Assembly: GCA_963830235.1 (NCBI GenBank)
Contig: CAWHLR010000026.1
Span: 4,792 to 68,791 of the forward strand
DNA from: an uncultured Verrucomicrobiae bacterium
GTDB taxonomy: Bacteria > Verrucomicrobiota > Verrucomicrobiia > Limisphaerales > UBA11358
DNA length: 64,000 bases
Direction: 5' to 3'
This document shows, piece after piece, positions 3,166-54,427 of the stretch. Both the position numbers and the translations under genes were made by a program. A model generated the notes under the pieces. It worked only from the letters and a program-made list of their open reading frames with translations. It searched no databases and was not told the DNA's origin. Position 1 is the stretch's first letter; the number at the start of each line of letters is the position of its first letter.

Positions 3166-3216
3166 TCCGCCCAAACGAAATTCGACGAAAGCCCCGGAAC
3201 GCGATAACCTGTTCGT

Positions 3217-5559
3217 GTGTGCAGCGCCTCGTCGCCATATCAGGTTGAATCGAATGCCGGGCACGGCCCCGGCGCCACGGAATTGCTCGTCGGCGGCATG
3301 AACTGCAACAATTGCGCGCGGCACGTCACCGAGGCGGTTCAGGGCGTGGCCGGAGTGCGCAGCGCCACGGTGTTGCTCGAAGCCGGCCGCGCATCGGTGC
3401 GCTGGAATTCCGGCGCGGAGCAAAACGTTCCCGCCGTCATCGAGGCCGTTCAGAAGGCCGGCTATACGGCAAAACAAATCCAGCCCGGCCCTTCCGCCGG
3501 TGGCGAATCCAGACACGCCGACTGGCAAATCAATCTCTGGCTCGGCATCACCGTTACTGCCGCGCTGATGGTTGGCGAATGGATTTTCCATCTCGCCATG
3601 AAACCGTGGTTTCAGTGGGTTGCCTTTGCGCTGGCCGGACTGGTGCAGGTCTTTGCCGGGGCAAAATTTTATCGCGGCGCATGGAACCAGCTCAAAATCG
3701 GCAACTCGAACATGGATACGCTCGTCGCGCTCGGTTCGACCACCGCGTTTGGCTACAGCGCGTGGGCTTTGCTGAGCGGTGTGGGCGGCCATCTCTATTT
3801 CATGGAAGCCGCCGCCATCATCACGCTCATCAGTTTCGGCCACTGGATCGAGGCTCGCGTGAGCATGCGCGCGTCGGGCGCGCTGGAAAATTTGCTGAAC
3901 CTCGCGCCGCAAACCGCGCGCCGGATTTCTCAATCCGAAATCCGAAATCCGAAATCCGAAATTGAAGTCCCTGTCGCCGAACTGAAAATCGGCGATCTGG
4001 TCGCGTTGCGCCCCGGCGACCGGGTGCCGGTGGATGGCACGGTGGCCGAAGGCGATTCCGCCGTGGACGAGGCGATGCTCACCGGCGAATCGGCGCCGGT
4101 GGACAAAAAAACCGGCGGCGAACTTTACGCCGGCACGGTGAATTTGAATGGCCAGCTCATCATGCGTGTGACCGCCACCGGCGAAAGCACTGCGCTGGCG
4201 CACATCATCGCCGCCGTGCAACGCGCCCAGACCAGCCGCGCCGATATCCAGCGCCTCGGCGACCGCGTGAGCAGCGTCTTCGTACCGGTCGTCGTCGCCA
4301 TCGCCGTCGCTGCTGCTTTGTGGTGGGGATTCATGCCGGAATCGGCGAAACACATTCACGACCTGCTCGCGCCGTTCCTCTGGCACGTCATGTCTCCGAC
4401 CGGCGCGGCGGCGGGTTTCATCATTGCTGCGGCGGTATTAATTGTGGCGTGTCCGTGCGCGATGGGTCTGGCGACGCCCGCCGCCATCATGGCCAGTGCC
4501 AACACCGCCGCGCGCCGCGGCATTCTGATTCGCGACGGTGTGGCGCTGGAGAAGGCCGGGAAAATCACTGCCGTAATTTTCGACAAGACCGGAACCCTCA
4601 CCCTTGGGAAGCCGGAAGTCGCAGTCATTGGAGCGCCGGTCTCCGACCCGGCGCGTTTCGAAACGATTGATCTTCGAGCCGGGTCGGAGACCGGCGTTCC
4701 AATCGCACAAATCGCCGCAGCGTTGGCGCGTTCCTCGAACCACCCCATCAGCCAGGCGATTGCCAAATTGTCTGCTCAGAACATTGACTTGAAAGACTGG
4801 CAGGAAATTCGCGGCTGTGGCGTTGAGGCCAACATTCAACATTCAACATTCAACATTCAACATCCAATGGGCAAAGCCCGGCTCGGTTCGCTCCGGTGGT
4901 TGAAGGAATCCGGCGTGGATTTGGCGGCAGGTGAAAAATTCATTGCCGAGTGGTCGCAACAGGGCGCAACGATTGTCGGGCTGGCGGTGGAGCAATCGCT
5001 CGCCGGGTTGTTCGCCGTCAAGGACACGGTGAAGCCCGGCGCACACACGGTGGTGGAACAATTGCACCGGCAGAATTTGAAGACGTTTTTGGTGACCGGC
5101 GACAACGCGTTGACCGCCGCCAGCATCGCCCGGCAGGCCGGCATCGCGGCGGAGAACGTCGCCGCCGAAGTGCGACCGGAACAAAAGGCGGAGTTTGTGA
5201 AAAAACTCCAGGCGCAAGGCGAGCGCGTGGCGTTCGTGGGCGACGGCATCAACGATGCGCCGGCGCTGGAGCAGGCCGATCTCGGCATCGCCGTGAGCCG
5301 CGCCAGCGACCTCGCGCGCGAGGCGGCGGACATCATTTTGTTGAAATCGGAAATCGAGGCCGTGCCGGAGGCGCTCGGCCTGGCGCGGGTGACGTTGCGG
5401 ACGATCAAACAGAATTTGTTCTGGGCGTTTTTTTACAACGCGCTGGGCGTGCCGCTGGCCGCGCTGGGTTTCATCAGCCCGATTTTATGCGCGGCAGCGA
5501 TGGGCGTGTCGGACTTGATTGTGATTGGCAATGCGCTGCGGCTTTTGCGGTGGCGCTGA
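3217..5559 (+). CDS. copA: copper/heavy-metal translocating P-type ATPase
   Basis: Contains the GMNCNNC metal-binding motif, TGES, CPC, DKTGT and GDGINDAP. Confidence 0.95.
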   Translation: MCSASSPYQVESNAGHGPGATELLVGGMNCNNCARHVTEAVQGVAGVRSATVLLEAGRASVRWNSGAEQNVPAVIEAVQKAGYTAKQIQPGPSAGGESRHADWQINLWLGITVTAALMVGEWIFHLAMKPWFQWVAFALAGLVQVFAGAKFYRGAWNQLKIGNSNMDTLVALGSTTAFGYSAWALLSGVGGHLYFMEAAAIITLISFGHWIEARVSMRASGALENLLNLAPQTARRISQSEIRNPKSEIEVPVAELKIGDLVALRPGDRVPVDGTVAEGDSAVDEAMLTGESAPVDKKTGGELYAGTVNLNGQLIMRVTATGESTALAHIIAAVQRAQTSRADIQRLGDRVSSVFVPVVVAIAVAAALWWGFMPESAKHIHDLLAPFLWHVMSPTGAAAGFIIAAAVLIVACPCAMGLATPAAIMASANTAARRGILIRDGVALEKAGKITAVIFDKTGTLTLGKPEVAVIGAPVSDPARFETIDLRAGSETGVPIAQIAAALARSSNHPISQAIAKLSAQNIDLKDWQEIRGCGVEANIQHSTFNIQHPMGKARLGSLRWLKESGVDLAAGEKFIAEWSQQGATIVGLAVEQSLAGLFAVKDTVKPGAHTVVEQLHRQNLKTFLVTGDNALTAASIARQAGIAAENVAAEVRPEQKAEFVKKLQAQGERVAFVGDGINDAPALEQADLGIAVSRASDLAREAADIILLKSEIEAVPEALGLARVTLRTIKQNLFWAFFYNALGVPLAALGFISPILCAAAMGVSDLIVIGNALRLLRWR
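3932..3963. repeat. heptanucleotide tandem array (AATCCGA x4) inside copA
   Basis: aatccgaaatccgaaatccgaaatccgaaatt, read in-frame as SEIRNPKSEI. A single complementary unit (cggatttc) sits just upstream. Confidence 0.9.
4634..4696. repeat. REPIN-like perfect inverted repeat inside copA (in-frame, 63 nt)
   Basis: cgccggtctccgacccggc (4634-4652) and its exact reverse complement gccgggtcggagaccggcg (4678-4696). Each arm holds a ggtc-tcc-gacc mini-hairpin. Confidence 0.9.
4831..4865. repeat. heptanucleotide tandem array (AACATTC x4 + AACATCC) inside copA
   Basis: aacattcaacattcaacattcaacattcaacatcc, read in-frame as NIQHSTFNIQHP. Confidence 0.9.
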
Positions 5560-5587
5560 TTTTCCCCTTGAACCGTCGCGCGCCGGT

Positions 5588-8500
5588 TTATTCCTCGCCG
5601 TTGCCGGATTCGGCCTTGCGTTCCCAGCGGCGCGGCGCGCGTTCGGGCAGCGAGGTGTCGACCTTGGCGTAATATGTTTCCTCGCCAAAACGCGCGTCGG
5701 CTTCCTGCTGCAATTTCAACGACGGCATGACGCCGAAACGTTCGTTGGTGTCCATGAAGATGACTTCGCCGCCGGGACGCATGAAACACAGCAGCAACGG
5801 GCATTTGCCCGGATGCGCGGCCACGAGTTCGCGCACGGATTCCAGTTGTTCCGGTTTCAGGTGCGCGGTGTGCAGCCGCAAATGAACCTGTTTGGTGAAT
5901 TTTCTGGGCGCGTCCTCCAGCGGCAGGATTTCCTGCGGAAAAATCTTTGGGCGGTCGTCACCGGTGTTCACTTCGCCGATGACCAGGATGGCTTTGTTCG
6001 GCACGAGCAACGCGCGGTATTTGTCGTAGTTCTCGTTCATGCAAAGAATCTGCACGGAGCCTTCGAGGTCTTCGAGCGTGACCATGGAGTAAGGCTTTCC
6101 GCTTTTCTTTGACACGCCGTTTTGCACCGCCGCAATCAATCCGCCGATGGCCGTCTGGCTGCGATTCGGCAGCTCCGCGAGCTTGGCGGTGTTCGCCAGC
6201 GTGTATTTTTCCAAAATCGGCGCAAACGGCGTCAGCGGATGGCCGGTGACGTAAAAGCCGAGCAGCTCCTTTTCGTGTGCGAGCAACTCATGCTGCGGCC
6301 ATTCGGGCAGGTTGCTGATGGCGTCCGGCATGGGCGGCGCTTTTTCCTCCAGCGCGCCAAAGAGCGAGCTTTGTCCCTTCTGCCGGTCGGAAAGAATGCT
6401 CGCGGCGCGGGCCAGGGTGCGTTCGATTTGCGCGGACAACGTGGCACGCGTCTGGCCGAAGCCGTCGCACGCGCCGGTTTTGATGAGCGCCTCAAGTGTT
6501 TTCCGGTTCACCGTGCGGCCATCCGCGCGCTCGCACAGATCCGAAAGCGAGGTGAATTTTCCGCGTTCGTTCCGGGCTTTCAAAATGGATTCCACCGCGA
6601 CTTCGCCCACGCCCTTGATCGCGGCGAGGCCGAAGCGGATGGCCTTGCCGTCGCGCGCCGGGGCGAAGTGGACCAGGCTCTCGTTCACATCGGGGCCGAG
6701 GACCTCGATGCCGAACGCCCGCGCCTCGTTGATGTACTGGCTCAACTTGGCGGTATCCGCCATGTCGTTGGTCATCATCGCGCAGAAAAATTCGACGGGA
6801 TAATTGGCCTTCAGATAGGCGGTCTGATACGCGACGATGGCGTAGGCGGCGGCGTGCGATTTGTTGAAGCCATAGCCGGCGAACTTTTCCAGCAAATCGA
6901 AAATCTCGTTCGCCTTTTTTTCGGGGATCTGGTTTTTATCCCTGCAGCCCTTGACGAAAATGGCGCGTTGCTTGGCCATTTCCTCCAGCTTCTTTTTGCC
7001 CATGGCGCGCCGGAGCAAATCCGCGCTGCCAAGCGTGAACCCGGCCAGCAACTGGGCGGCCTGCATCACCTGTTCCTGGTAAATCAAAATGCCGTAGGTC
7101 TCGCGCGCAATCGGTTCGAGCAGCGGATGTTCGTATTTGATCTCGATTTCACCGTGGCGACGCTTGATAAATTCAGGAATCAGCTCCATCGGGCCGGGCC
7201 GGTAAAGCGCGACCAAGGCGGTGATGTGTTCAACGGAACTGATTTGAAACTTGCGGCACAAATCGCGCATTCCGCCGGATTCCAACTGGAACACGCCGAG
7301 TGTTTCCGCGCGGTTGAGCAGGTCGTAGGTCTTTTGGTCGTCGAGCGGCAGATGGTCAATCGGCACCTCGATGCCGTGCGTGCGCTTGACCATTTCGCAG
7401 GTGTTGCGGATGACGGTGAGCGTCTTCAGGCCGAGAAAATCCATCTTCAGCAGGCCCAGCTCGCCGACGGGATTCATCGCGTATTGCGTGACGAGCGTGC
7501 CGCTTTCGTCCTGCTTGAGCGGCAGCAAATTCACCAGCGGCTGATCGCCGATGACGACGCCGGCGGCGTGGACGGAGGCGTTGCGCGTGATGTCTTCCAG
7601 GATGAGCGCGGTGTCAATCAATTCGCGCGTGACCTCCTCGGTTTGGTAGGCCTCCTTGAATTCCGGCGACTGCTTGAGCGCCTTCGTCAAATCCATTTTC
7701 AGATCGAACGGAATCATCTTGGCCAGCCGATCGCACTCGCCGTAGCTCAGGCCCATCACGCGGCCCACATCGCGCACGACGGATTTCGCGCCCATCGTGC
7801 CGAACGTGATGATTTGCGCGACGGAATCGCGGCCGTATTTCTCGCGGACATACTCAATGACATCGGCGCGCCGGTCGTCCGCAAAATCAATGTCAATATC
7901 CGGCGGGTTGACGCGCTCGGGATTGAGGAAGCGCTCGAACAGCAGGCCGTAGCGGATCGGGTCCACGTTGGAAATTTCCAGCAGGTAGGTGACGATGGAA
8001 CCGGCGGCGGAACCGCGCGCCACACAAGCAATGCCGTGTTCGTGACCGTACCGGATGAAATCGCCAACAATGAGAAAGTAACTGATGAAACCTGTCTTTT
8101 CGATGACCTTAAGCTCCAGTTGCAGCCGATCCAAAACGGCCTTGATGGCGGCAGCGATGGCGGGGTCTTTTATGTCGTAGCAGCCGACGTGAGGAGGCTC
8201 ATTCTTTTTCTGCCCGGCATCTTCCGAATCTGATTTGAGCCTCGTTACCTCGGCTGCTACGGAAGCATCGAAAGTCGGCAATCGCGTTGGATCGTCAATT
8301 CCCTCGAACGACAAATTCCTTGCCCTCGGCTTTGGCGTGAAGCGTGTAGCGCCGGAGCAATCCTTCCGCAACCAACTTGCGCAAATAACCTTCGCGCGTG
8401 AAATGTTCCGGCGGCGCAAAGACCGGGAAGTGCAATTTGCTGAAATCGATTTCCAGGTTGCACTGCTCAGCGACGGCGAGCGTGTTTTTGACGGCCTCGG

Positions 8501-9287
8501 GCGTTTCGGCGAAGCGCGCCTTCATTTCCTCCGCCGTGCGCAGGTAAAACTGCTCCGGCTCGTAGCGCATCCGTTTCGTCTCGGCCAGTTGCGTCTGCGT
8601 GCCGATGCAAATCAGGCAATCATGCGCGTGCGAATGGCTTTTCTCGATATAATGAACGTCATTCGTTGCGATGAGTTTGAGGCCGAATTCCTTCGCCCAC
8701 AGGATCAAATGCTTGTTGACCTTGGCTTGTTCGGCGATGCCGTGGTTTTGCAGTTCGAGATAAAAATTGTCCGGGCCGAGCGTCTGCTTGAACCAATCCA
8801 CCGCGTCGCGCGCCTTGTCCAACTGGTCCTTGAGGATCCAATCCGGGATTTCGCTCGCAAGGCAGCCGGACATGGCGATCAGGCCTTCCTTGTGCGCGGC
8901 GAGGATTTCCTTGTCAATGCGCGGCTTGTAATAATAACCCTCCAGATGCGCGGCGGTGGTGAGCTTGATGAGGTTTTTGTAGCCGGTCTCGTCCTTGGCC
9001 AGCAAGCCGAGATGATGATAAACATCGCGTCCGCCGCTGCTGGTTTTCTTTTCCAGCCGGCTGCCGGGTGCAACATAAACTTCGCAGCCGATGATGGGTT
9101 TGATGCCCTTTTCGCGCGCCGCCTTGTAAAAATCAATGACGCCATGCATCGCGCCGTGGTCGGTGATGGCGAGCGCGGGGAATTTCAGTTCATGCGCCTT
9201 GTCCACCAGCCGGTCCAGACGGCAGGCGCCATCGAGCAATGAATACTCGGTGTGCAGATGCAAATGGACAAAATCGGCGTGCGACAT
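5588..9287 (-). CDS. dnaE: DNA polymerase III alpha subunit; the reading frame is broken by a one-nt shift near 8300 (true frameshift or sequence error)
   Basis: The N-terminal PHP-domain ORF 8295-9287 (HLHLHTEYSLLDG) is followed by the remainder in ORF 5588-8419 (FLIVGDFI, FERFLNPERVNPPDIDIDF). The two ORFs overlap in different frames. Confidence 0.9.
8177..8260. repeat. REPIN-like inverted doublet inside dnaE (in-frame, 84 nt)
   Basis: GTAGCAGCCGACGTGAGGAGGCTC (8177-8200) faces GAGCCTCGTTACCTCGGCTGCTAC (8237-8260). It belongs to the same family as the solo REP at 34677-34700. Confidence 0.75.
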
Positions 9288-11643: not shown

Positions 11644-11773
11644 TTCGGCGCTGAAAATAATCCGGTTGCGCGGCAATTAACAATCCAAATATTCCACGGT
11701 GTGTGCGGCGGCGGTCTGCGACCGTCACAATTCGGCCTTTGGAGGAGGCGATGCTCATAGAACGCCGCAACAA

Positions 11774-12769
11774 TTATTTTATGTTTTGCAAGGTGGCCAG
11801 AACCTGTTCCGGCGAAATTGCCGCCAGGCAGAAATTCGCGCTTTGACAAACGCTCCTGCCGGGACCACATGGACACAAACTACCCGTCAGGATGCGGTGG
11901 CGCGAGCCGATCGGCGCCCACCGCGCGGGGTCGCTGGGGCCAAACAGCGCGATGGTCGGCACGCCCGCTCCGGCGGCAAAATGCAGCGGGCCGGTGTCAC
12001 CGGTAATCAAAACTTCCGCCCGTTTCAACAGCGCGAGAAACAAGGCCAGCTCGGGCACGGCCGGCAACACCGTCGCGGCCGGGGCGAGTTTTTTTAATTC
12101 GTCCGTCAAGGATTGTTCCCGCGCGCCGGTCGCGGTGGTAAAGGCAAGCCGTTGCCCGGCGGCAGCGGCCAGGTGATAAAGATCCGCCCATTGCCGGACG
12201 GGCCACTGCCGGTTCGGCTGGCTCGAAGCCATGTGGCAAAGAACGGTTCGCTGCGGTAGCAACTCCGCCGCCAGCGCGTCCTTCGCCGGGTCGGTCCGGA
12301 TTTCCAGCTCCAGCGAAGATGGTGGCGCGATGCCCCACGCGGACAAAGCGTGCGCCATTCGCAGCGACTCGTACTGCGTCACCGGCGCTGTCGGCACGCG
12401 CTGGTTGTAACAAAAGCGCCGGCCCAAAAAACCGCCCGGTTCCAGCAACCCCAGCCGCTGTCGCGCGCCGCAGAGGAAGCTGAGGATGGCACCGCGATCA
12501 TTGCCGGCAAAATCCACGGAGCGGTCAAACCGTTCGCGGCGCAGGGCGCGGATGATGGGCCAGGTTTGGCCCGGCTTTGCGCTTCCGCGCCGGCGCGGCA
12601 TTGGCCACACCCGATTGATCCAGGGCAGGCCGTTGAAAATGGGCGCAACGGCCTCCAACACCAGCACGTGCAATTCGCCGTTCGGAAAATGGCCGCGAAT
12701 TGCCCGCAGCGCCGGGGTCATCAGCACGGCATCGCCGAAGTATTTGAACTGGAGGGCGAGGATTTTCAT
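11774..12769 (-). CDS. glycosyltransferase family 9 (heptosyltransferase-like)
   Basis: MKILALQFKYFGDAVLMTPALRAI and a C-terminal ITGDTGPLHFAAGAGVPTIALFGPS motif. Confidence 0.85.
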   Translation of the reverse strand: MKILALQFKYFGDAVLMTPALRAIRGHFPNGELHVLVLEAVAPIFNGLPWINRVWPMPRRRGSAKPGQTWPIIRALRRERFDRSVDFAGNDRGAILSFLCGARQRLGLLEPGGFLGRRFCYNQRVPTAPVTQYESLRMAHALSAWGIAPPSSLELEIRTDPAKDALAAELLPQRTVLCHMASSQPNRQWPVRQWADLYHLAAAAGQRLAFTTATGAREQSLTDELKKLAPAATVLPAVPELALFLALLKRAEVLITGDTGPLHFAAGAGVPTIALFGPSDPARWAPIGSRHRILTGSLCPCGPGRSVCQSANFCLAAISPEQVLATLQNIK

Positions 12770-12834
12770 AGTGGCACGGGCATCTTGCCCGTGCATTTCA
12801 AATTTTTATCGAACCGGCGGGACGCCTGTGCCAC
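12768..12834. repeat. REPIN doublet (GTGGCAC family)
   Basis: aTAGTGGCACGGGCATCTTGCCCGTGC faces GGCGGGACGCCTGTGCCAC. It has the same two half-types (ATCTT loop and TCC loop) as the element in the kinase gene. Confidence 0.8.
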
Positions 12835-12837
12835 CGT

Positions 12838-14652
12838 TCACGAGGCGAATTGCAATTCGTAAAGTTTTTGATAAACGCCGCCGCGCCGGACCAGTTCCGC
12901 GTGCGTGCCGGTCTCCACAATGCGGCCCTGATCCAGTACCACAATTAAATCCGCGTGCAGAATGGTCGAGAGGCGGTGCGCGATGCAAATCGTGGTGCGG
13001 GCCTTCATCAATCCGTCGAGTGCTTCCTGCACCGCCCGTTCGGACTCGGTGTCGAGCGCGCTGGTGGCCTCGTCGAGAATAAGAATCGGCGCATTGCGCA
13101 GCACGGCGCGGGCGATGGCGAGGCGCTGGCGCTGTCCGCCGGAAAACATGACGCCTTTTTCGCCGATCATGGAATCGTAACCTTTCGGGCTGGCCATGAT
13201 GAAATCGTGCGCGTTCGCGTGCCGGGCGGCGGCGATGATTTCCTCCTGCGTGGCGCCGGGCCGGCCGAGCTCAATGTTCCGGCTGACGGTGTCGTTGAAG
13301 AGGATGATTTCCTGGGTGACGACGGCCATCTGGCTGCGCAGATCGCGCGTGGTCACATCGCGAATGTCCACGCCGCCGATGCGAATGGCGCCGCGCGTGG
13401 GGTCGTAAAAGCGGAGCAGCAGATTGGAAAGGGTCGTTTTGCCGGAGCCGCTGGCGCCGACGAGCGCCACCATGCGGCCGGCGGGAACCGTGAGCTGGAT
13501 GTCCGTCAGCACCTCCTTGTCGCCGTAGGCGAAACAGACATGGTCGAAGCAAACCGCCGCGCCCGCCGCGCGCAGGGGCACGGGTTGGGCCGGTTCGCGC
13601 ACGGAATTTTCCATGGCCAGCAAATCGAAGACGCGCTGGCTGGCGGCGCGCGCCTGTTGCAACTGGCTCTGGACGCGGATGAGATTTTTGATGGGGCGAT
13701 ACATGAAGAACACCCCGATGGCAAAAGGAACAAATTTGACGGCGTGAGAACTCGGCTGAAAGGCGAAGTAGAGGCACATCAGGGCGACGCCGATGGCGGC
13801 GAGAAATTCATTCAGCGGCCCGGGAATTTCCTCCGAGCGGACGATGCGCATGCGGTGGCTGACAAAGCGTTGGGAAACCTCCTTGAATTGTTGAACCGCC
13901 TTTTCTTCGAGGTTGTAGGCCTTGATGATGCGGTTGCCGGTGAAGGATTCATGCATCACCGTTGACAGTTCGGAGTAACTGTTCTGGATGATGGTGCTGG
14001 ATTTGCGCACTTTGCGGCTGTAGATGACGATGGGGATGAGACAAACAGGAAAAATCAGCGCTATGACCAGCATGAGCTTGGCGTCCAAATACAACAAGCC
14101 CGCCAGGCAGCCCATTACCGTCACCGGATCCTTTACCACCACCGCCAGCGGCGCGGTGATGGTGTTCTGCAATGAGATGGTGTCCGAGTTGAGGCGCGAC
14201 ATCAGATCGCCGGTGCGGGACTGGACAAAAAAGCCGACGGAAAGGTTTTGGAGGTGGGCAAACAGCCGGGTGCGCAGGTCGGTGATGGCGCGGATGGCGA
14301 CCCATTGCAGGCAATACACATTCAGATACGCGAACAGGCCGCGCAGGATGAACATGAACGGGATCAGCAAAATCACGAGAATTTTCACCCCGGCAGTGGG
14401 CGCGGAGCCGGCTTGGGTAAACCAATCGGCGATCGTATGCGCAACGGTTTGCAACCAGGGTGACAGATTTTTCAGCACGGTCTCGGCGCTGTCCGCGCCT
14501 CCGCCGGTAAAGACCACCAGCCCCACCAGTGGAATGACCAGCATCAGCAGCGGGTCAACCAGGCCGCTCAGGAATCCAAATAAAATGCCCAAGGCCAGGC
14601 GCAACCGGTACGGCTTGGCCAGTCCCAGCAATCGGTGGAGAAATTCAATCAT
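12838..14652 (-). CDS. msbA: ABC transporter permease/ATPase, MsbA-like lipid exporter
   Basis: Six-TM N-domain, Walker A GASGSGKTT, signature LSGGQRQR, Walker B ILILDEATSALD. Confidence 0.85.
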   Translation of the reverse strand: MIEFLHRLLGLAKPYRLRLALGILFGFLSGLVDPLLMLVIPLVGLVVFTGGGADSAETVLKNLSPWLQTVAHTIADWFTQAGSAPTAGVKILVILLIPFMFILRGLFAYLNVYCLQWVAIRAITDLRTRLFAHLQNLSVGFFVQSRTGDLMSRLNSDTISLQNTITAPLAVVVKDPVTVMGCLAGLLYLDAKLMLVIALIFPVCLIPIVIYSRKVRKSSTIIQNSYSELSTVMHESFTGNRIIKAYNLEEKAVQQFKEVSQRFVSHRMRIVRSEEIPGPLNEFLAAIGVALMCLYFAFQPSSHAVKFVPFAIGVFFMYRPIKNLIRVQSQLQQARAASQRVFDLLAMENSVREPAQPVPLRAAGAAVCFDHVCFAYGDKEVLTDIQLTVPAGRMVALVGASGSGKTTLSNLLLRFYDPTRGAIRIGGVDIRDVTTRDLRSQMAVVTQEIILFNDTVSRNIELGRPGATQEEIIAAARHANAHDFIMASPKGYDSMIGEKGVMFSGGQRQRLAIARAVLRNAPILILDEATSALDTESERAVQEALDGLMKARTTICIAHRLSTILHADLIVVLDQGRIVETGTHAELVRRGGVYQKLYELQFAS

Positions 14653-21135: not shown

Positions 21136-21139
21136 ATAT

Positions 21140-21218
21140 GGAGTGCGCGGACACGTCCGCGCTTTGGTTCGTCGCGACATGTCGCGTCGGGGAAAGCGGC
21201 GACGTGTCGCCGCACTCC
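21140..21218. repeat. REPIN-like triple-hairpin palindrome between convergent genes
   Basis: ggagtgcgcggacacgtccgcgc ... cgcgacatgtcgcg ... gcggcgacgtgtcgccgcactcc. The outer arms ggagtgcg/cgcactcc pair with each other. Confidence 0.8.
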
Positions 21219-21228
21219 AAATCAAAAA

Positions 21229-26404: not shown

Positions 26405-28771
26405 ATGAAAAGGGTTCTGGCGCCAATCTTCTGGCTGCTGCTTGCACTGGCCGGCGCGGACGCCTATGCCACGCTGGCGTTTCGCCGGAGCGAGCCGGTC
26501 AATTCAGCCTATATTCTCATCGCGGCGGTCTGCACCTATGCCATCGGCTACCGGTTTTATTCCAAATGGATTGCCGCGCGCGTGCTCACGCTCAATGACC
26601 GCCGCGCCACGCCATGCGAAGTCCACGACGACGGCAAGGATTTCGTGAGAACGAACAAATGGGTTGTCTTTGGCCATCATTTCGCGGCCATTGCCGGGCC
26701 GGGACCGCTGGTCGGGCCGGTGCTGGCGGCGCAATTCGGTTACCTGCCTGGCACACTGTGGATTTTAATCGGCGCCGTGCTCGGCGGCACGGTGCAGGAT
26801 TTCGTCATCTTGTTTTGCTCGATGCGGCGGGATGGCAAATCGCTCGGCCAGATGGTCAAGGAGGAATTGAATTCGCCGGTTGGCTTCATCGCGGGGCTGG
26901 CGATCCTGGCCATTCTGGTGATTATGCTCGCAGTCCTCGCACTCGTTGTGGTCAAGGCTCTCGCGGAAAGTCCGTGGGGTATTTTCACCGTTGGCGCAAC
27001 CATTCCCATCGCGTTGTTGATGGGCTGTTACCTGCGTTTCTTGCGCGTCGGAAAGATTCTGGAAGCCTCAGCCTTTGGTGTTACAATGCTGCTGCTCGCG
27101 GTGTGGGGCGGCAAACTGGTCTATGAAAATCCGCACTGGTCGCAGGTCTTTGGACTGCGCGACCTCACGGTTGCCTGGGTCATCATTGGCTACGGCGTCA
27201 TCTCCAGCAGCCTGCCGGTGTGGCTGCTGCTCGCGCCGCGCGATTACCTCAGCACGTTCATGAAACTCGGCACCATCTTCGCGCTCGCCCTCGGCATCCT
27301 GCTGCTCCTGCCCAATTTGCAAATGCCCGCGCTGACGCAATTCATTGACGGTTCCGGCCTGGTCGTGGCCGGAAAGGTTTTTCCGTTCTGCTTCATCACC
27401 ATCGCGTGTGGCGCGATTTCCGGTTTTCACACGCTCATCGCCAGCGGCACGACGCCGAAACTCATCACTCGTGAAGGTTATGCGCGGCCCATCGGTTATG
27501 GCGCGATGTGCTGCGAATCCTTCGTGGCCATCATAGCGATCATTGCCGCCTGCACCCTGGACCCGGGCGTCTATTTCAGCATGAACGTCAAAGGCGATCC
27601 CGCCGCCACCGTGGCCCTGGTCGCCTCGCATGGTTTTCCGGTGACCACCGGCCAGATGGCTGCGCTGGCCCATGAACTCGGCGAGAAAACCCTGTTCGGT
27701 CGCACTGGTGGCGCGGCCACGCTGGCCGTCGGCATGGCGCACATTTTTTCCAAGGCCGTCAACGGCCGCTGGCTCGACCTCTGGTATCACTTCGCCATCA
27801 TGTTTGAGGCGCTGTTCATCCTGACCACGGTGGACGCCGGCACGCGCGTGGGACGTTATCTGATTCAAAGTGTGCTCGGCCGGGTTTGGAAACCCCTGGG
27901 CGACCCGAAATATTTTCTCACCACACCGGTGGCCGCCGCGTTGATGGTAGGCGCGTGGGGATATTTTTTGATTCAAGGCGTGCGTGATCCGCTCGGCGGC
28001 GTCAACTCGCTCTGGCCGCTGTTTGGTATTGCCAACCAGATGCTTGCCGCCATCGCGTTGTGCCTGGCCACAACCGTCATTTTGAAAATGCAGCTTGGAG
28101 CGTCGGCCTCCGGCACGGCACGAATCGAGAAGCCCGCCGTGCCGGAGGCCGACGCTCCAAAACATTTGCCTGCGCTCGCGCTCATCACGTTCATTCCACT
28201 GGTCTGGCTGGCAGCGGTAACATTCACGGCAGGAGTTGAGAAAATTTTCCATCCCGACCCGCGCATCGGATTTCTGGCGCAGGCGCAAAAGCTGGCTGAA
28301 AAAGCACCCGCCTTGCAAAGTGCGCTCACCAACGCGAACGCTGCGGGTGATGCGGCCGCAATTGACACCGCTCAAATAGCATTGCGCGCCAACCGCACGC
28401 TCCGGTTCAACAACCTTCTCGACGCCGCCGTGGCCGGAATTTTTCTGGCTCTGGTCATCGCGATTGTTCTGTTAAGCTTGCGCGAGTGGATTTTGCTGCT
28501 GTCGCGGCGCAAACCGGCGGTGTTGCACGAAACCGGGCCGGTCTGGCTGCCGGATTACGCCGTCGTGGAGGGCGGGCGCAAGTTCAGCGGCGCGGCCGGC
28601 GCCGCCGCCCTGGCCCTGGCGCTGGCGAAGGAATGGTCCGGCGAATCGCATCTGGAACGCGCGCAGCAGCAGCAAACGCAGGCGGTTTGCCAATGCCATT
28701 CCGCGAACGCACAGCAGGTTTACGTCGAAGCCACGGAACAGCGGTTCAACGGTGTGCGGCGGTGTTGTTAA
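26405..28771 (+). CDS. cstA: carbon starvation protein A family transporter with a YbdD/YjiX-like C-terminal tail
   Basis: Polytopic protein with CstA-like blocks (VVFGHHFAAIAGPGPLVGP, ISGFHTLIASGTTPK). The C-terminus ends in ...EQRFNGVRRCC. Confidence 0.85.
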   Translation: MKRVLAPIFWLLLALAGADAYATLAFRRSEPVNSAYILIAAVCTYAIGYRFYSKWIAARVLTLNDRRATPCEVHDDGKDFVRTNKWVVFGHHFAAIAGPGPLVGPVLAAQFGYLPGTLWILIGAVLGGTVQDFVILFCSMRRDGKSLGQMVKEELNSPVGFIAGLAILAILVIMLAVLALVVVKALAESPWGIFTVGATIPIALLMGCYLRFLRVGKILEASAFGVTMLLLAVWGGKLVYENPHWSQVFGLRDLTVAWVIIGYGVISSSLPVWLLLAPRDYLSTFMKLGTIFALALGILLLLPNLQMPALTQFIDGSGLVVAGKVFPFCFITIACGAISGFHTLIASGTTPKLITREGYARPIGYGAMCCESFVAIIAIIAACTLDPGVYFSMNVKGDPAATVALVASHGFPVTTGQMAALAHELGEKTLFGRTGGAATLAVGMAHIFSKAVNGRWLDLWYHFAIMFEALFILTTVDAGTRVGRYLIQSVLGRVWKPLGDPKYFLTTPVAAALMVGAWGYFLIQGVRDPLGGVNSLWPLFGIANQMLAAIALCLATTVILKMQLGASASGTARIEKPAVPEADAPKHLPALALITFIPLVWLAAVTFTAGVEKIFHPDPRIGFLAQAQKLAEKAPALQSALTNANAAGDAAAIDTAQIALRANRTLRFNNLLDAAVAGIFLALVIAIVLLSLREWILLLSRRKPAVLHETGPVWLPDYAVVEGGRKFSGAAGAAALALALAKEWSGESHLERAQQQQTQAVCQCHSANAQQVYVEATEQRFNGVRRCC

Positions 28772-28778
28772 AAAATTT

Positions 28779-29341
28779 GGAGGGCACTGCTTCGTCAGTG
28801 CCCCAACTAAATTAAATTGATGCGGGAATTGCAATCAAACGGAGAAATCGGGCGTAAACATCCCGTTCACCAGCCCGTTTTTCAACAGGGCAATCAAGCG
28901 GTTATTGTCTTTGTCACAGTCAATGCCCACCAACGAAAACCCATCCTTGCCAAAACAGATGTGGCAAACATTGTTCTCACCACGTGGGAGCAGGCTGACA
29001 CGTGGCTGGTTGGACGTTATGTCATCATGCCCGACCACATTCACTTTTTTTGCGCACCGCGTGATGTGTCGGTAAACTTGAAGCGTTGGATGAAGTTCTG
29101 GAAGAGCCAGGTTTCTTTGCGCTGGCCGCGATCCGCCGAACAGCCCGTCTGGCAGCTTGATTTTTGGGACACGCAATTGCGTCGCGGCGAGAGTTATTCG
29201 GAGAAATGGGATTATGTTTGTCGAAACCCCGTGCGAAAAGGCCTTGCGGCAAGGCCGAAAGATTGGCCTTATGCAGGCGAATTGAATGTCCTGTCCTGGC
29301 ACGACAAATGAAATTAGGGCACTGACGAAGCAGTGCCCTCC
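28779..29341 (+). mobile_element. RAYT-like unit: Y1/HUH transposase gene bracketed by perfect inverted hairpin REPs
   Basis: ggagggcactgcttcgtcagtgccc (28779-28803) and its exact reverse complement (29317-29341). Each is itself a hairpin (gggcactg/cagtgccc). Confidence 0.85.
28817..29311 (+). CDS. IS200/Y1-type (REP-associated-like) tyrosine transposase
   Basis: HUH motif MPDHIHFFCAP and Tyr motif WDYVCRNPVRKGL. About 160 aa. Confidence 0.75.
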   Translation: MMRELQSNGEIGRKHPVHQPVFQQGNQAVIVFVTVNAHQRKPILAKTDVANIVLTTWEQADTWLVGRYVIMPDHIHFFCAPRDVSVNLKRWMKFWKSQVSLRWPRSAEQPVWQLDFWDTQLRRGESYSEKWDYVCRNPVRKGLAARPKDWPYAGELNVLSWHDK

Positions 29342-29346
29342 AAAAT

Positions 29347-34174: not shown

Positions 34175-34681
34175 ATGAAAACCCCATTCGTCGAACTGCC
34201 GGTTTCCACGCGTGACGGTCAATTCGTCGCCCGTTATTCGGAAAAAGGACTGGCGGAACTGGATTTCCCCGCCAGTGGCAGGGCGGGGCTGCCGCCCCGC
34301 CAGGACGCGCGGCAGCGCGTCCCTGCCAAAATATCCCGCTGGCATCGCGCAACCGCCGCCGCGTTGAAGGCGGTTCTCGCCGGGCGCGCGGCGAAAACAC
34401 TGCCGCCGCTCGATTGGTCCGGCAAAACGGAATTTCAGAAAAGCGTCTGGCGCGCGCTGCGCAAAATCCGCCGCGGCCAGACCAAAAGCTACGGCGAAAT
34501 TGCCCGTGCCATTGGCAAACCGAAGGCCGTTCGCGCCGTGGGCGGCGCATGCGGCGCGAATCCAATCCCGGTTTTAATTCCGTGTCACCGCGTGCTCGCC
34601 GCGAATGGAAAAATTGGCGGTTTCTCCGGCGGATTAAATCGGAAGCGCGAACTGCTCGCGCGCGAAGGGGTTTTCTTGTAG
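34175..34681 (+). CDS. ogt: methylated-DNA-protein-cysteine methyltransferase
   Basis: IPCHRV active-site motif and GEIARAIGKPKAVRAVGGACGANP. Confidence 0.9.
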   Translation: MKTPFVELPVSTRDGQFVARYSEKGLAELDFPASGRAGLPPRQDARQRVPAKISRWHRATAAALKAVLAGRAAKTLPPLDWSGKTEFQKSVWRALRKIRRGQTKSYGEIARAIGKPKAVRAVGGACGANPIPVLIPCHRVLAANGKIGGFSGGLNRKRELLAREGVFL

Positions 34682-34700
34682 CAGCCGACGTCAGTCGGCT
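34677..34700 (+). repeat. solo REP hairpin (GTAGCAGCCGAC family) overlapping the ogt stop codon
   Basis: GTAGCAGCCGACGTCAGTCGGCT has stem agccgac/gtcggct. The TAG of GTAG serves as the ogt stop codon. Confidence 0.75.
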
Positions 34701-35461: not shown

Positions 35462-35483
35462 TCGTCCCGCAGGGACAACCGAG

Positions 35484-35632
35484 AATAGCCCGCAGTTTCA
35501 ACTGCGGGTTTTGATGCCATAAAAATCACAAGCCCCGGAGGGGCGGATCGAATCTGCAACGATTTTGTCTGCCGCCCCTCCGGGGCTTGATTGATATTGG
35601 GCTGTTACCCGGCGTTGAAACGCCGGGCTATT
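35484..35632. repeat. three-hairpin structured element, copy 1
   Basis: agcccgcag-tttcaa-ctgcgggtt; agccccggaggggcgg...ccgcccctccggggct; tacccggcg-ttgaaa-cgccgggcta. Confidence 0.8.
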
Positions 35633-35658
35633 GTCGGTCGTCGCTCTGCGACTACAAT

Positions 35659-40529: not shown

Positions 40530-40610
40530 GTAGTGGCACAGGCGTCCCGCCTGTGAGTGTCGGAGAAACCGCAAACGAGAAACTCACAGGCAAGATGCCT
40601 GTGCCACTAT
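40530..40610. repeat. REPIN doublet (GTGGCAC family) in-frame inside the kinase (81 nt)
   Basis: GTAGTGGCACAGGCGTCCCGCCTGTGAGT faces ACTCACAGGCAAGATGCCTGTGCCACTAT. It is translated as GSGTGVPPVSVGETANEKLTGKMPVPL. Confidence 0.85.
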
Positions 40611-44081: not shown

Positions 44082-44232
44082 AATAGCCCACGGTAAAACC
44101 GTGGGTTCAACGAACAAAATAAAACCAGCCCCGGCAGGGGCGGCAGAAAACATACGAACGGTTTTATCTGTCGCCCCTGCCGGGGCTTGTGATTTTTGTC
44201 CGACCAACCCACGGCTGACGCCGTGGGCTACT
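44082..44232. repeat. three-hairpin structured element, copy 2
   Basis: agcccacgg-taaaa-ccgtgggtt; agccccggcaggggcggcaga...tctgtcgcccctgccggggct; aacccacggc-tgac-gccgtgggcta. Confidence 0.8.
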
Positions 44233-44370
44233 TTCTGCCGCCTCCGGCGCTGAACGCGCAATTTGCCAAGCGGCAACTGACTTGGTTCCGCGCCCGGAAA
44301 ATCCAGAGTGGATTGAATTGAAGCCGGAGGAATCGCTGGAAAGATGTGCGCAGAAAATTTGTGAAACGAT

Positions 44371-50033: not shown

Positions 50034-50035
50034 GC

Positions 50036-52978
50036 ATGATTGCCCGCGTCAGTCTTGAAATCGCGCTCCGCAAGGAGTTCGATTATTTGATTCCGCCCGG
50101 ATTGGCGGGGCAAATCGAGGTGGGCAGCCGCGTGCAGGTGCCGTTCGGCCCGCGAAAAATTTTAGGCTGCGTCACCGCGCTCGCCGAGGAATCGGCTCAC
50201 ACCAATCTCAAACCCATTTTGAAAGTCATCGGGGCGCAGACGCTTGTCACGCCGAAGGTTCTGAAGCTTGCGCGCTGGATTGCCGAGTACTACTGCTGCG
50301 CACCGGAAACCGCGTTGAAATCCGTCTTGCCCGAGGCCGTGCGCAAGGAGGAATCCGGCTGGCGCGAGCGGCTGTTTGTCCGCGCGCTGCCGGTGAGCGG
50401 CGAATTTCCGAAGCTGCCGAAACGCCAGCAGGAAGTCTGGAACATCATCGAGGAGCGACGCGAGCTGCCATTGTCGGAACTGGTCGAACTGGCCGAAACC
50501 ACCGCCGCCACCATCCGCAAACTCGAAGACCGCGGACTGCTTGAGGTCGCCCCGCAAATTTCCGAACGCGATCCGTACGCCCGCGAACACATCCTGCCGT
50601 CGCAACCGCTCCCGTTGAACCCGGCACAGGCTGCCGCGCTGGAGAAGATTGAGACGGCTATGAATGGCCGTTGTAGCACCCGCGTCCCGCGGGTGGAGGC
50701 GGGCGTCGCGCCCGCCTCTCGTCCGACAGTCAAGCCCGGCCCGATATGGGAAACCACCGCCCGCAAACGCAGCCTGCCGCATTTTGAAATTCCGGGTTTT
50801 ACCTATCACGTCACCTGGCAAACGCAGGACAAACTGATTCTTTCGCCCGAAGCCCGCGCAAAGACTTTGGAAGCCTGCCATTTCTGGCACGGGAACAAAA
50901 TCAAATGTTACGCCGCGTGTGTAATGCCCGACCATGTTCATTTGCTGATTCAACCTTTGCCGGTTCAGGAAGCCGGGAAAGAAGGCGTTCATCCGCTCTC
51001 GGAAATTCTTCACAGCATCAAATCATTTTCCGCCCATGAGGTGAACAAGGCCATGAAACGCAGCGGTCCGGTCTGGATGGATGAATCGTTTGACCGGATG
51101 ATCCGTTCGGAGGCCGACTTGCACAAGACGTGGGATTACATCTGGAACAATCCGCGCAGGATTGGATTGGTTGGACCAATGGAGGAATATCCTTACCTTT
51201 GGACGCCAACCGCACCCGACACACCCCAAGGTGTCCGGCGCGACGCCGGACACGACCCGCGGGACGCGGGTGCTACACCACAGACATCGGACGGCGCAAA
51301 GTCATCTCAAGTTTTCCTGCTTCATGGAGTGACCGGCAGCGGCAAAACCGAGGTTTATCTGCAAGCCCTCGCCCACGCGCTCGAACAGGGCAAGGGCGCC
51401 ATTGTGCTTGTGCCGGAGATTTCGCTCACGCCGCAGACCGTCGAGCGGTTTAAAGCACGTTTCAGCTCCGGCAAACTCCAGACGCTTGTTGCCGTGCTGC
51501 ACAGCCACCTGTCCGCCGGCGAACGTCACGATGAATGGCACAAAATCCGCCAGGGCCGCGCACGCATCGTCATCGGCGCGCGCTCGGCGATTTTTGCGCC
51601 GGTTGAACCGCTCGGCCTCATCATCGTGGACGAGGAACACGAGCACTCTTACAAGCAGGAGGAGGCGCCGCGCTACCACGCCCGCGACGTGGCCATCATG
51701 CGTGGCCAGATGGAAAACGCCGTCGTCGTGCTCGGTTCGGCCACGCCGTCGCTGGAAAGTTATTACAATTGCAAGAAGGGCAAATTCACGCTGCTCGAAC
51801 TGCCGGAGCGCGTGGACGACCAGAAAATGCCGCACGTCCGGGTCGTGGACATGCGGCAAGCCGCGTCCCAGCAGCGCGGAAAGGAAGGCATCCCGATTTT
51901 TTCGCCGCAACTCAAGGAAGCCATCACCCAGCGGCTCGAACGCGGCGAGCAGACGATTTTGTTTTTGAACCGGCGCGGTTATTCGACGTCGCTGCAATGC
52001 CCGAAGTGCGGCGAGGTTGTTCAGTGTCCGAATTGCAGCCTCGCGCTCACGTTTCACCGGCAGGAACAAAAGCTCGCCTGTCACATCTGCGGCCACGTCG
52101 CGCCCGTGCCGTCGGTTTGCCCAAATGCGAAATGCAAAAACCCGGCGATCCGTTTTGCCGGCACGGGCACGCAGCGGGTCGAGGAAACGCTTGCCAAGCT
52201 TTTCCCGCAGGCGCGCATCAAGCGCATGGACGCCGACACGATGAAACGCAAGGACGATTACCGGAAGGTGCTCGGCGATTTCCGCACGGGCAAAACCGAC
52301 ATCCTCGTCGGCACACAGATGATCGCCAAGGGGCTGCATTTCCCGAACGTCACGCTCGTCGGCATCATTTACGCCGACCTCGCGCTGCATCAGCCGGATT
52401 TTCGCGCGGGCGAACGGACCTTCCAACTGCTCACGCAAGTCGCCGGACGGGCCGGGCGCGGGGATGTCGAGGGCGAGGTGTTCGTGCAGGCATTCGCGCC
52501 ATTTCATCCGGCGATTCAATATGCGCGCCGCCACGACTTCACCGGCTTTTATGAACAGGAAATTGAATTCCGCGAGCAACTGAAATATCCGCCCGTCAGC
52601 CGCGTGGCGTTGCTCACGCTCAAGGGCCGCAACGAAGACAAGGTGAAATTTAGCGCCGAACACCTGAAACGGGAGCTGGAGAAAAATCTTGTGGCGGCGG
52701 TCTGTGACCGCCGCCAATCAGATGAAAAGAATGCAACTGCAAAAAACAAGGATAGTGCGGCGGTCACAGACCGCCGCTACAGCTTCGGTGATTTAATCAT
52801 CGCCGGTCCGGCGCCGGCGCCGTTGCTGCGCGCGGAAACTTTTTATCGGTACCAGATCATGCTGCGGACGCGCGCGATGAGCAAATTGAGCCAGGCCCTG
52901 GCAAAAATCATTGGGACGCTTGCCCTACCGGATGACGTGACCCTGGCGGTGGACATTGACCCGGTTAATTTGGGGTAG
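50036..52978 (+). CDS. priA: primosomal protein N' (replication restart helicase) carrying two in-frame insertions
   Basis: N-terminal ARVSLEIALRKEFDYLIP...VQVPFGPRKILG, Walker A HGVTGSGKTEVY, DEEH box IIVDEEHE, and the Cys cluster CPKCGEVVQCPNCSLALTFH...CHICGH. Confidence 0.9.
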   Translation: MIARVSLEIALRKEFDYLIPPGLAGQIEVGSRVQVPFGPRKILGCVTALAEESAHTNLKPILKVIGAQTLVTPKVLKLARWIAEYYCCAPETALKSVLPEAVRKEESGWRERLFVRALPVSGEFPKLPKRQQEVWNIIEERRELPLSELVELAETTAATIRKLEDRGLLEVAPQISERDPYAREHILPSQPLPLNPAQAAALEKIETAMNGRCSTRVPRVEAGVAPASRPTVKPGPIWETTARKRSLPHFEIPGFTYHVTWQTQDKLILSPEARAKTLEACHFWHGNKIKCYAACVMPDHVHLLIQPLPVQEAGKEGVHPLSEILHSIKSFSAHEVNKAMKRSGPVWMDESFDRMIRSEADLHKTWDYIWNNPRRIGLVGPMEEYPYLWTPTAPDTPQGVRRDAGHDPRDAGATPQTSDGAKSSQVFLLHGVTGSGKTEVYLQALAHALEQGKGAIVLVPEISLTPQTVERFKARFSSGKLQTLVAVLHSHLSAGERHDEWHKIRQGRARIVIGARSAIFAPVEPLGLIIVDEEHEHSYKQEEAPRYHARDVAIMRGQMENAVVVLGSATPSLESYYNCKKGKFTLLELPERVDDQKMPHVRVVDMRQAASQQRGKEGIPIFSPQLKEAITQRLERGEQTILFLNRRGYSTSLQCPKCGEVVQCPNCSLALTFHRQEQKLACHICGHVAPVPSVCPNAKCKNPAIRFAGTGTQRVEETLAKLFPQARIKRMDADTMKRKDDYRKVLGDFRTGKTDILVGTQMIAKGLHFPNVTLVGIIYADLALHQPDFRAGERTFQLLTQVAGRAGRGDVEGEVFVQAFAPFHPAIQYARRHDFTGFYEQEIEFREQLKYPPVSRVALLTLKGRNEDKVKFSAEHLKRELEKNLVAAVCDRRQSDEKNATAKNKDSAAVTDRRYSFGDLIIAGPAPAPLLRAETFYRYQIMLRTRAMSKLSQALAKIIGTLALPDDVTLAVDIDPVNLG
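50673..51276 (+). mobile_element. RAYT-like Y1/HUH transposase module with inverted GTAG-REP flanks, embedded in-frame in priA
   Basis: GTAGCACCCGCGTCCCGCGGGTG (50673-50695) faces ACCCGCGGGACGCGGGTGCTAC (51255-51276). Inner hairpins sit at 50696-50718 and 51231-51253. The segment encodes PDHVHLLIQP and WDYIWNNPRRIGL. Confidence 0.8.
52691..52780. repeat. REPIN doublet (GCGGCGGTC-TGT-GACCGCCGC family) in-frame inside priA (90 nt)
   Basis: GTGGCGGCGGTCTGTGACCGCCGCC faces GCGGCGGTCACAGACCGCCGCTAC. It is translated as VAAVCDRRQSDEKNATAKNKDSAAVTDRRYS. Confidence 0.85.
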
Positions 52979-53082
52979 CACAGGCCTCCGGCCTGTTGTT
53001 TCGTGCGTCGCGCCCGAAACCGTCGCGGGACGAACGCCTATTTCACATTTGCCCGATTGCCTGCAACCTGTGTCGCCCAACG

Positions 53083-53128
53083 GAATTCGGCGGGACGCCG
53101 AATTCAACCCGCGAGACGCGGGTGCTAC
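53083..53128. repeat. bipartite REP, same family as the priA RAYT flank
   Basis: gaattcggcg-gga-cgccgaattc followed by ACCCGCGAGACGCGGGTGCTAC. It overlaps the 3' end of the gene at 53125-53520. Confidence 0.8.
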
Positions 53129-54369: not shown

Positions 54370-54427
54370 GTAGCCGCGTTTGTAAAAACGCGGAAAATAG
54401 CGCCGCGCTCTTACGAGACGCGGCTAC
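54370..54427. repeat. REPIN doublet (GTAGCCGCG family)
   Basis: GTAGCCGCGTTTGTAAAAACGCGG faces GCCGCGCTCTTACGAGACGCGGCTAC. Confidence 0.8.

Follow-up and report, generated by a model that had tools for sequence, protein, structure and literature searches.

We analysed a 64,000-nucleotide stretch of DNA (hereafter the window) from an uncultured peat-soil Verrucomicrobium (contig CAWHLR010000026.1 of assembly GCA_963830235.1). It is very probably densely populated by repetitive extragenic palindromes (REPs), by their inverted doublets (REP doublets forming hairpins, REPINs) and by two of their REP-associated tyrosine transposases (RAYTs), which belong to the TnpAREP type of HUH transposases. 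The REPs reduce to two foot types, namely GT[AG]GC, which goes with the clade of one transposase (RAYT-B), and GGAG, which goes with the clade of the other (RAYT-A). RAYT-B lies with its REPs in frame inside the gene for the primosomal protein PriA. This start-less, stop-less REP–RAYT–REP arrangement appears to be new, as no description of a RAYT embedded in a host open reading frame (ORF) was found in the open-access literature searched; Bertels et al. (2017) leave fusions unmentioned.

Exactly two RAYT-like ORFs and no third copy were detected in the window by tblastn, in agreement with the preliminary description of this DNA, in which two RAYT genes had been noticed. Both exceeded the cut-off of 80 bits for NCBIfam NF047646, 'REP-associated tyrosine transposase' (RAYT-A, 99.4 bits; RAYT-B, 87.0 bits), and they share 29% identity. 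The HUH and tyrosine motifs read PDHIHFF and WDYVCRNP in RAYT-A, and PDHVHLL and WDYIWNNP in RAYT-B; among 41 homologues, both histidines were invariant and the tyrosine nearly so (90% or more). As a single sequence, RAYT-B gave no match to Protein Data Bank (PDB) sequences by phmmer, and Escherichia coli TnpAREP (4er8) was reached by profile search alone. The profile of RAYT-B homologues matched 4er8 at E=3e-12, with the HUH and tyrosine motifs aligned, and matched IS200/IS605 transposases more weakly, at E=4e-6. An HUH nuclease fold with a single tyrosine is predicted for RAYT-B. Both genes are bounded by two inverted cognate REPs (28778 and 29317 for RAYT-A, 50673 and 51254 for RAYT-B), as are their relatives. 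REPtron A (28778..29342, + strand) is intergenic, between cstA and nadD, and carries RAYT-A at 28817-29311 between identical TGGAGGGCACTG-CTTCGT-CAGTGCCC units at 28778-28803 (+) and 29317-29342 (-). The cstA-RAYT-nadD synteny was found in at least 16 relatives with 67-94% identity, and RAYT-B occupies the same priA site in L122 and L204 (such handles denote loci of other genomes), indicating a single locus and vertical inheritance for the two RAYTs.

The REP units share one anatomy, consisting of a short unpaired 5' foot (GTAG/GTGG or GGAG), a GC-rich stem of 7-10 bp and a small conserved loop. Perfect GC-rich hairpins, with a stem of at least 7 and a loop of 3-7, numbered 59 in the window, compared with 30.0±4.6 (maximum 41) in 30 dinucleotide shuffles of the window. 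The foot GTAGC/GTGGC was present on 12 of the 59 perfect hairpins, compared with a shuffle mean of 0.73 (maximum 3), and TAGC and GTAG were among the commonest 4-mers adjoining stems. A GTAG or GTGG start had been given earlier for most families; the family at 4629, listed without a foot tag, has a GGAG foot. The foot of the 4629 unit reads TGGAG, as at 21139, 28096 and 28778, and GGAG is a further variant at position 2 relative to the GTAG tag. The window also contains (A/G)TAGCCC feet, on the outer hairpins of two nested palindromes. One of the 12, a GTAGCAC-footed hairpin at 49706-49723 inside a DUF374 gene, was dropped as probably not a REP because it coincides with the codons of the conserved PDGPRGP motif; coding coincidences of this kind enter foot-plus-hairpin counts.

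Ten inverted doublets were recognized in the window by fuzzy matching and reading of the sequence, all ten with the feet outward, which is the layout of both REPtrons (REP-RAYT-REP). On folding, the doublets formed long single-strand hairpins of -17 to -38 kcal/mol, with z-scores of -3 to -11. The inverted orientation of doublets reported in the preliminary description thus held throughout, every site listed there was found as described, and the identification as REPs stood, with GC-rich hairpins, unpaired 5' feet and inverted doublets whose units also bound the RAYT genes. The possible degenerate copy suspected near 11700 was located at 11705-11728. Not listed at that stage were the doublet at 28096-28159, the GGAG foot at 4629, two palindromes of ~190 bp, the placing of doublets within genes and the RAYT inside priA.

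We then compared the REPs that flank RAYTs in other genomes. In 62 of 80 RAYT-A relatives from a metagenome scan (46-94% identity), the flanking hairpins had GGA at the foot, GG..CC in the stem and either CTYCGT or TTCY in the loop, and 29 different perfectly complementary stems were found behind this one conserved foot and loop. The left and right REPs of one RAYT were often unlike in stem or loop, among relatives of both RAYT-A and RAYT-B. The RAYT-B relatives L084 and L092 are flanked by GT[AG]GCAC..GCGTC.CGC..GTG units, and in L123 a GT[AG]GCAC..GCGTC.CGC unit is paired with an arm carrying a GCATCTTGC loop, which is the two-arm design of the doublets at 12768 and 40533. Searched as a degenerate pattern in GTDB species genomes, the GT[AG]GCAC..GCGTC.CGC unit occurred on at least 120 contig stretches, from Planctomycetota, Verrucomicrobiota, Acidobacteriota, Armatimonadota and other phyla. 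Its four free stem positions were complementary in 117 of 137 cross-genome matches, compared with 1/16 by chance. Compared with an orthologous copy that is 85% identical, the window differs by 1 change in 46 nt of the left REP and by two compensatory pairs in the accessory hairpin.

Selection on hairpin structure rather than on stem sequence, as proposed in the preliminary description, is supported by the complementary free positions, by the 29 stems behind one foot and loop, and by the compensatory changes between orthologues. The contrast drawn there between at least eight families and two RAYTs did not hold, however; splitting by stem over-counts the families, and each of the two foot types has its RAYT clade. 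Eight stems against two RAYTs is no puzzle, because one RAYT can own more than one stem and because the window represents ~1% of a ~5.9-Mb genome of this group, for which reason RAYTs are expected elsewhere in it.

By homology with E. coli TnpAREP and IS200/IS605 (PMC8266576, PMC3479197), a RAYT would bind the folded hairpin on single-stranded DNA, reading the foot, the loop and the shape but not the letters of the stem. Its tyrosine would cut beside the foot, and doublets, each a copy of the two REPtron ends, would be moved in trans. Because recognition would depend on foot, loop and shape, stems could drift freely while their pairing is kept, leaving many 'sequence families' behind few foot and loop types. 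Insertions would land anywhere, and the survivors would be those in intergenic DNA or those that are stop-free and in frame in tolerant protein loops, which in the window may be loops of CopA, DnaE, CstA, a Ser/Thr kinase and PriA.

It is possible, although we consider it rather doubtful, that each stem family has one dedicated RAYT elsewhere in the genome and that the two RAYTs seen here serve their own flanking units only. Repeat-specific REPtrons are found in the multi-family genomes of Opitutus terrae, Rhodopirellula baltica and Stenotrophomonas maltophilia (PMC3733652, PMC2817692), the window is ~1% of the genome, and this explanation may apply to the GGAG[CT]GC units, which differ from the GGAGGG foot of RAYT-A. 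On the other hand, single RAYTs are bounded by two REPs with unlike stems or loops, and it is the foot and loop, not the stem, that track the RAYT clade over 46-94% identity. In addition, orthologous copies swap stems by compensatory substitutions while the RAYT is unchanged.

The hairpins are unlikely to be host regulatory elements (terminators, mRNA stabilizers or protein-binding sites) instead of mobile DNA. Several lie just 3' of stop codons or between convergent genes (21139, 34678 and 52975), a few fit a loose terminator pattern, and REPs of other bacteria are known to act in these ways (background in PMC3733652). However, terminator-like sites in 40-60 kb showed no enrichment (44, compared with an expected 35±6.9), six doublets are contained in ORFs, in which a terminator would do harm, and close relatives differ in the presence or absence of REPs and carry different REP types at one site. 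Furthermore, the same units form the ends of RAYT genes. Ordinary terminators lacking a shared foot, a reading entertained at the outset, do not agree with this absence of enrichment or with the foot count of 12 versus 0.73. Intrinsic terminators were rejected as candidates, since few REP arms fit even the loose pattern and many REPs are inside ORFs.

The host gene of RAYT-B, priA, extends over 50036..52978 (+), with Met at 50036 as the likely start of an ORF listed from 49853. This 1041-aa ORF (49853-52978) contains all PriA domains and, at residues 317-404, Y1_Tnp (Pfam). Compared with Klebsiella PriA, residues 271-484 form an insert at the winged-helix/helicase junction. The insert consists, in order, of the left REP (50673-50695), an accessory hairpin (50696-50718), RAYT-B (~50720-51230), a second accessory hairpin (51231-51253) and the right REP (51254-51276), which together constitute REPtron B (50673..51276, +), in frame within priA. 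RAYT-B is most likely translated as a guest domain of PriA, because it is in the host frame and has no start or stop codon of its own. Its location would shield RAYT-B from loss, as only a precise deletion leaves priA intact. Each GTAGCACCCGCG unit in this region is followed by a second hairpin (50696-50718, 51231-51253 and, 3' of priA, 53083-53105) with a conserved CGTCGCG or CGTCCCG loop on unrelated stems (GAGGCGGG, GTGTCCGG and GAATTCGG), which makes a two-hairpin module the functional unit of this family.

The priA insert was absent in L095, a Verrucomicrobiae metagenome-assembled genome (MAG; OY969416.1) with 84% nucleotide identity, and present at the same place with an open frame in L122 and L204 (85-86% nucleotide identity). 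At the three codon positions, the RAYT part has 17/15/52 substitutions and the PriA part 26/7/62; by this measure the RAYT-B frame in priA is under purifying selection. A 979-aa PriA::RAYT chimera is deposited as NCBI MGA2802410.1, annotated 'primosomal protein N'', and the identical protein was indexed in 70 blocks of the assembly collection. We read 25 of the carrying contigs, of which the three shown are from separate JGI metagenome samples; the identical chimera recurs across many peat assemblies. In L122, an ENA contig, the 5' part of priA with the RAYT was present twice in inverted orientation (1-1468 and 4629-6025), probably as a long-read fold-back artefact, and a single-base deletion there at window position 50986 is therefore not to be trusted.

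At E<=1e-10, 1869 representatives were recovered with the RAYT-B domain in an exhaustive HMMER search, and the best 150 of them were inspected. Among these 150, 56 were longer than 350 aa with an internal match, and the HUH histidines and the tyrosine were invariant in all 56. The hosts of the 56 assigned by Pfam included AlaRS (14), class I aminoacyl-tRNA synthetases (8), DEAD helicases (7, of which four were RecG and two PriA), PurH (6), Ham1/RdgB (5), DNA methylases (2), and DnaK, shikimate kinase and BirA (1 each). The embedded RAYTs are flanked by REP-encoded peptides such as GTGVPPVS and HRRDACAT, the insertion site is recurrent within each host protein, and the RAYTs group largely by host in a neighbour-joining ordering. 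Among loci sampled by their REPs, two of the three RAYTs found were in frame inside ValRS (L084 and L092), and P0080 is a RecG::RAYT. The clade also has a free-standing member, L208. In L207 (JGI Ga0451520_0000072, 3001-3714), a RAYT-B homologue lies between nuoG and nuoH with stop/start overlaps on both sides, and is thus embedded in an essential operon but not inside a gene. In the low-GC genome of L123 (GCA_900174565.1, 5001-5762), a DUF1156-type methyltransferase gene is interrupted by a RAYT-B homologue whose REPs are GC-rich; the gene adjoins SNF2 and DUF499 genes in what resembles a defence island, and DNA methylases host several of the other embedded copies.

On these findings, we regard it as an evenly balanced proposition that the large RAYT-B clade lives on less as free genes than as in-frame guest domains that lack starts and stops, sit with their REPs in linkers of essential proteins and are translated with the host, here PriA and elsewhere AlaRS, ValRS, RecG, PurH, RdgB and DnaK. 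That the PriA::RAYT frame results from faulty assembly or gene calling, or belongs to a dead pseudogene of priA, is very unlikely. The window does contain frameshifts in dnaE and in the kinase gene, the long-read relatives L095 and L122 are frameshifted and L122 is a fold-back contig; moreover, Quentin et al. (2018) set aside long proteins of this kind, calling them 'gene fusions or annotation errors' (PMC6006769). Nevertheless, dozens of independent assemblies contain the 979-aa ORF intact, the third-position bias is present in PriA and RAYT alike, all PriA domains and the RAYT catalytic residues are intact, and the 56 internal matches are at recurrent sites in other conserved proteins.

IS200/IS605 relatives are capable of precise excision from single-stranded DNA. 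Also very unlikely is the removal of the embedded element before or after translation, whether by such RAYT-mediated excision from the DNA of part of the population, at the RNA level via pairing of the inverted flanking REPs or by protein splicing, for which the intein-like host spectrum (replication and repair proteins and aminoacyl-tRNA synthetases) might speak: a removed element need not keep its frame open, yet the insert is stop-free and in phase in every case examined, and the intein version was rejected because Pfam detected no Hint or intein domain in the 1041-aa ORF (PriA domains and Y1_Tnp only) and because the junction residues are REP-encoded peptides that differ between hosts.

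Several observations weigh against the reading of the window as REPs mobilized by their RAYTs, one of them a guest of PriA. The GGAG-foot units at 4629, 21139 and 28096 read GGAG[CT]GC, unlike the GGAGGG of RAYT-A's own REPs, and their owner may be an unseen RAYT. Stem types occur in 1-3 copies in the 64 kb, the 54370 unit is a singleton, and family status is drawn from relatives and other genomes. At priA, the target-site signature is unreadable because the empty-site relative L095 is too diverged. Nuclease activity, mobilization and translation through the insert are what we infer. Finally, dnaE and the kinase gene are each frameshifted near, but not in, their own REP doublets. A one-base frame change ~35 nt upstream of its doublet divides dnaE (minus strand) between a PHP-domain ORF, 8295-9287, and an ORF for the remainder, 5588-8419, while the Ser/Thr kinase ORF ends at 40897 after the DFG motif and is probably continued by the next ORF, 40921-42417, in another frame. 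These frameshifts are either assembly indel errors or signs of decaying host genes, and 'tolerated insertion' is therefore a weaker description for these two genes.

Six of the ten doublets (4629, 8177, 28096, 40533, 50673 and 52691) are in frame inside ORFs, and the extragenic location by which REPs are defined was not found for them. On alignment to solved homologues, the inserts were clean and in frame. In CopA, a copper P-type ATPase, the GGAG-foot doublet at 4629..4701 (TGGAGCGCCGGTC-TCC-GACCCGGC, encoding APVSDPARFETIDLRAGSETGV) lies between the GKP.V motif and the SEHP region of the nucleotide domain. The kinase insert, the doublet at 40533..40607, is in the β4-β5 loop of the N-lobe. 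In the PriA C-terminal linker, the doublet at 52691..52780 (GTRGCGGCGGTC-TGT-GACCGCCGC, encoding VAAVCDRRQ...SAAVTDRRY) forms a clean in-frame insert, with residues 944-980 of the ORF in place of 8 residues in Klebsiella PriA. From translation, the inserts in DnaE and CstA are also in frame: the GTAGCAGCC doublet at 8177..8260 is in phase with the downstream part of dnaE (minus strand) and encodes VAAEVTRLKSDSEDAGQKKNEPPHVGCY, and the GGAG-foot doublet at 28096..28159 in cstA is a 25-bp perfect inverted repeat with a 16-nt spacer. Across 120 loci, 28 of 137 REP matches were intragenic, compared with 60% of random positions in a crude test. In addition, an ogt-like gene (34679-34681) and priA (52976-52978) take their stop codon from the TAG within a GTAG foot.

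The CstA loop was compared between the window (28096-28159) and L125, L126, L128, L129, L133 and L134. After ILKMQL, three REP doublet types (GGAGCG, GGAGGG and GTAG) occur among these close relatives, and L133 has a short non-REP stretch there; the doublet type shared by the window with L134 and L126 shows a compensatory T>C / A>G change. The loop may be a hot spot or a site of serial replacement. At the PriA C-terminal site, L204 carries a different palindrome, and at 14114-14172 and 18013-18058 it has intergenic doublets with a GGTAGGG foot where the window has other REPs or none. The REP content therefore turns over fast between genomes that are ~80-86% identical.

The remaining REPs of the window are as follows. 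The doublet at 12768..12834 (aGTGGCACGGGCatcttGCCCGTGC, 17 nt, GGCGGGACGCCTGTGCCAC; GTGGCAC feet outward) occupies the whole 67-bp gap from the stop of an msbA-like gene to the start of a heptosyltransferase gene, with units at 12771-12793 (+, loop ATCTT) and 12812-12834 (-, loop GTCCC, 3' arm degenerate). The kinase doublet is of the same type, with GTGGCACAGGC-GTCCC and -ATCTT arms, and encodes the peptide GSGTGVPPVS...LTGKMPVPL. At 21139..21219, between convergent genes, is a GGAG-foot doublet (TGGAGTGC(GCGGA/GGCGA)-CACG) with compensatory stem changes between its arms and an extra central hairpin. The hetero-doublet 3' of priA (52975..53128) combines a GTAGCACAGGCC-TCC-GGCCTGT arm at 52975-52996 (+) and a GTAGCACCCGCG-TCT-CGCGGGT arm at 53106-53128 (-) with the accessory hairpin at 53083-53105, and is kept at the orthologous place in L204. 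Singletons are the GTAGCAGCCGAC-GTCA-GTCGGCT unit at 34678..34700 (+), which supplies the stop of the ogt-like gene, the intergenic GTAG-foot hairpin at 54370..54393 (+; GTAGCCGCGTT-TGTAAA-AACGCGG) and the degenerate GCGGCGGTC unit at 11705..11728 (+), also intergenic.

The nested palindromes were detected at 35463..35653 (~190 bp) and, as a second copy, at 44082..44251. The former has outer (A/G)TAGCCC-foot hairpins with co-varying stems around a long inner inverted repeat, AGCCCCGGAGGGGCGG; the latter has a GTAG foot on one arm and an Rfam Acido-Lenti-1 (RF01687) match on one arm. Acido-Lenti-1 matches scored 49.9, 42.5 and 37.7 bits (gathering threshold 37) at 35608-35653 (+), 44208-44251 (+) and 35463-35508 (-), respectively, and are the outer arms, on opposite strands, of these palindromes. 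RF01687 is listed in Rfam as a small RNA (sRNA). A REP-like DNA repeat may fit it better than an RNA gene, given the (A/G)TAGCCC feet and the co-varying stems of the matched arms. No further copy was found by an Rfam scan of 145 kb from 18 relatives' loci.

Multi-family GTAG REPs, GTGG variants, in-frame REPs and TAG donation are already known in Verrucomicrobia. In O. terrae and others, Di Nocera (2013) described multiple GTAG families, the variant GTGG, dimers that add 20-30 aa in frame, preferentially in genes for replication and repair, the foot TAG as stop codon and repeat-specific REPtrons (PMC3733652). Taken alone, the multi-family observation adds new members of a well-described kind and nothing beyond Di Nocera 2013, Nunvar 2010, and Bertels & Rainey. 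The embedding, in contrast, is relevant to an open question, namely what keeps single-copy, vertically inherited RAYTs in place (PMC5581495; preprint 10.1101/2021.07.10.451892), since loss of an embedded RAYT would be lethal unless precise. If the guest-domain reading is true, the host gene would be an intein-like refuge without splicing that ties a single-copy transposase, in both expression and retention, to an indispensable gene, giving a concrete answer to the long persistence of non-replicating RAYTs. If translated, the inserts would be natural domain insertions of an active-looking single-strand DNA nuclease in PriA, RecG and aminoacyl-tRNA synthetases. Embedded RAYTs also account for a class of 'unexpectedly long' Y1 proteins discarded by earlier surveys, and they call for caution in annotation, as pipelines label a chimera with the name of one partner or the other. 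Protein loops in which REP types replace one another, as in cstA and priA, offer a tractable system for studying how selfish DNA remodels protein surfaces.

Compared with the GTAG REP families, REPINs and REPtrons described so far (PMC2817692; PMC3116915; PMC3733652; GTAG-17 to -20 of O. terrae), the window shares the GTAG/GTGG foot, GC-rich stems of 6-9 bp, sub-families that differ in complementary stem bases, inverted dimers, several families in one genome, RAYTs flanked by inverted REPs, in-frame intragenic dimers of 20-30 aa in replication and repair genes, and the TAG foot as stop. It differs in its GGAG-foot group with a RAYT clade of its own, in the intragenic position of six of ten doublets, and in a whole REPtron in frame inside a host gene, which is unreported in PMC2817692, PMC3116915 and PMC3733652. 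With the E. coli TnpAREP/REP system (4er8; PMC3479197; PMC3333891; PMC8266576), it shares the DHVH and Y..NNP motifs and a predicted foot-plus-hairpin substrate, whereas RAYT-B is only distantly similar and forms a stretch within PriA, lacking start and stop codons, and the palindromes of the window are perfect, with no bulge. As summarized in PMC3733652 from Ogata et al. (2000), the Rickettsia palindromic elements (RPEs) are likewise in-frame palindromes tolerated in loops of functional proteins; in that account they have a CGTC tag and no dedicated transposase, in contrast to the GTAG/GTGG/GGAG feet and cognate RAYTs, one of them embedded, of the window.

The IS200/IS605 elements (IS608 and ISDra2), whose Y1 HUH transposases read subterminal hairpins in single-stranded DNA, are the likely mechanistic model, while RAYTs differ in being single-locus, vertically inherited and mobilizing short doublets in trans. 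With inteins and homing elements, finally, the embedded RAYTs have in common recurrent sites in essential genes (PriA, RecG, aminoacyl-tRNA synthetases and DnaK) and the lethality of imprecise loss. Unlike inteins, the RAYT insert has neither a Hint domain nor splicing junction residues, is located in variable linkers rather than in catalytic motifs, and appears to be kept in the mature protein.

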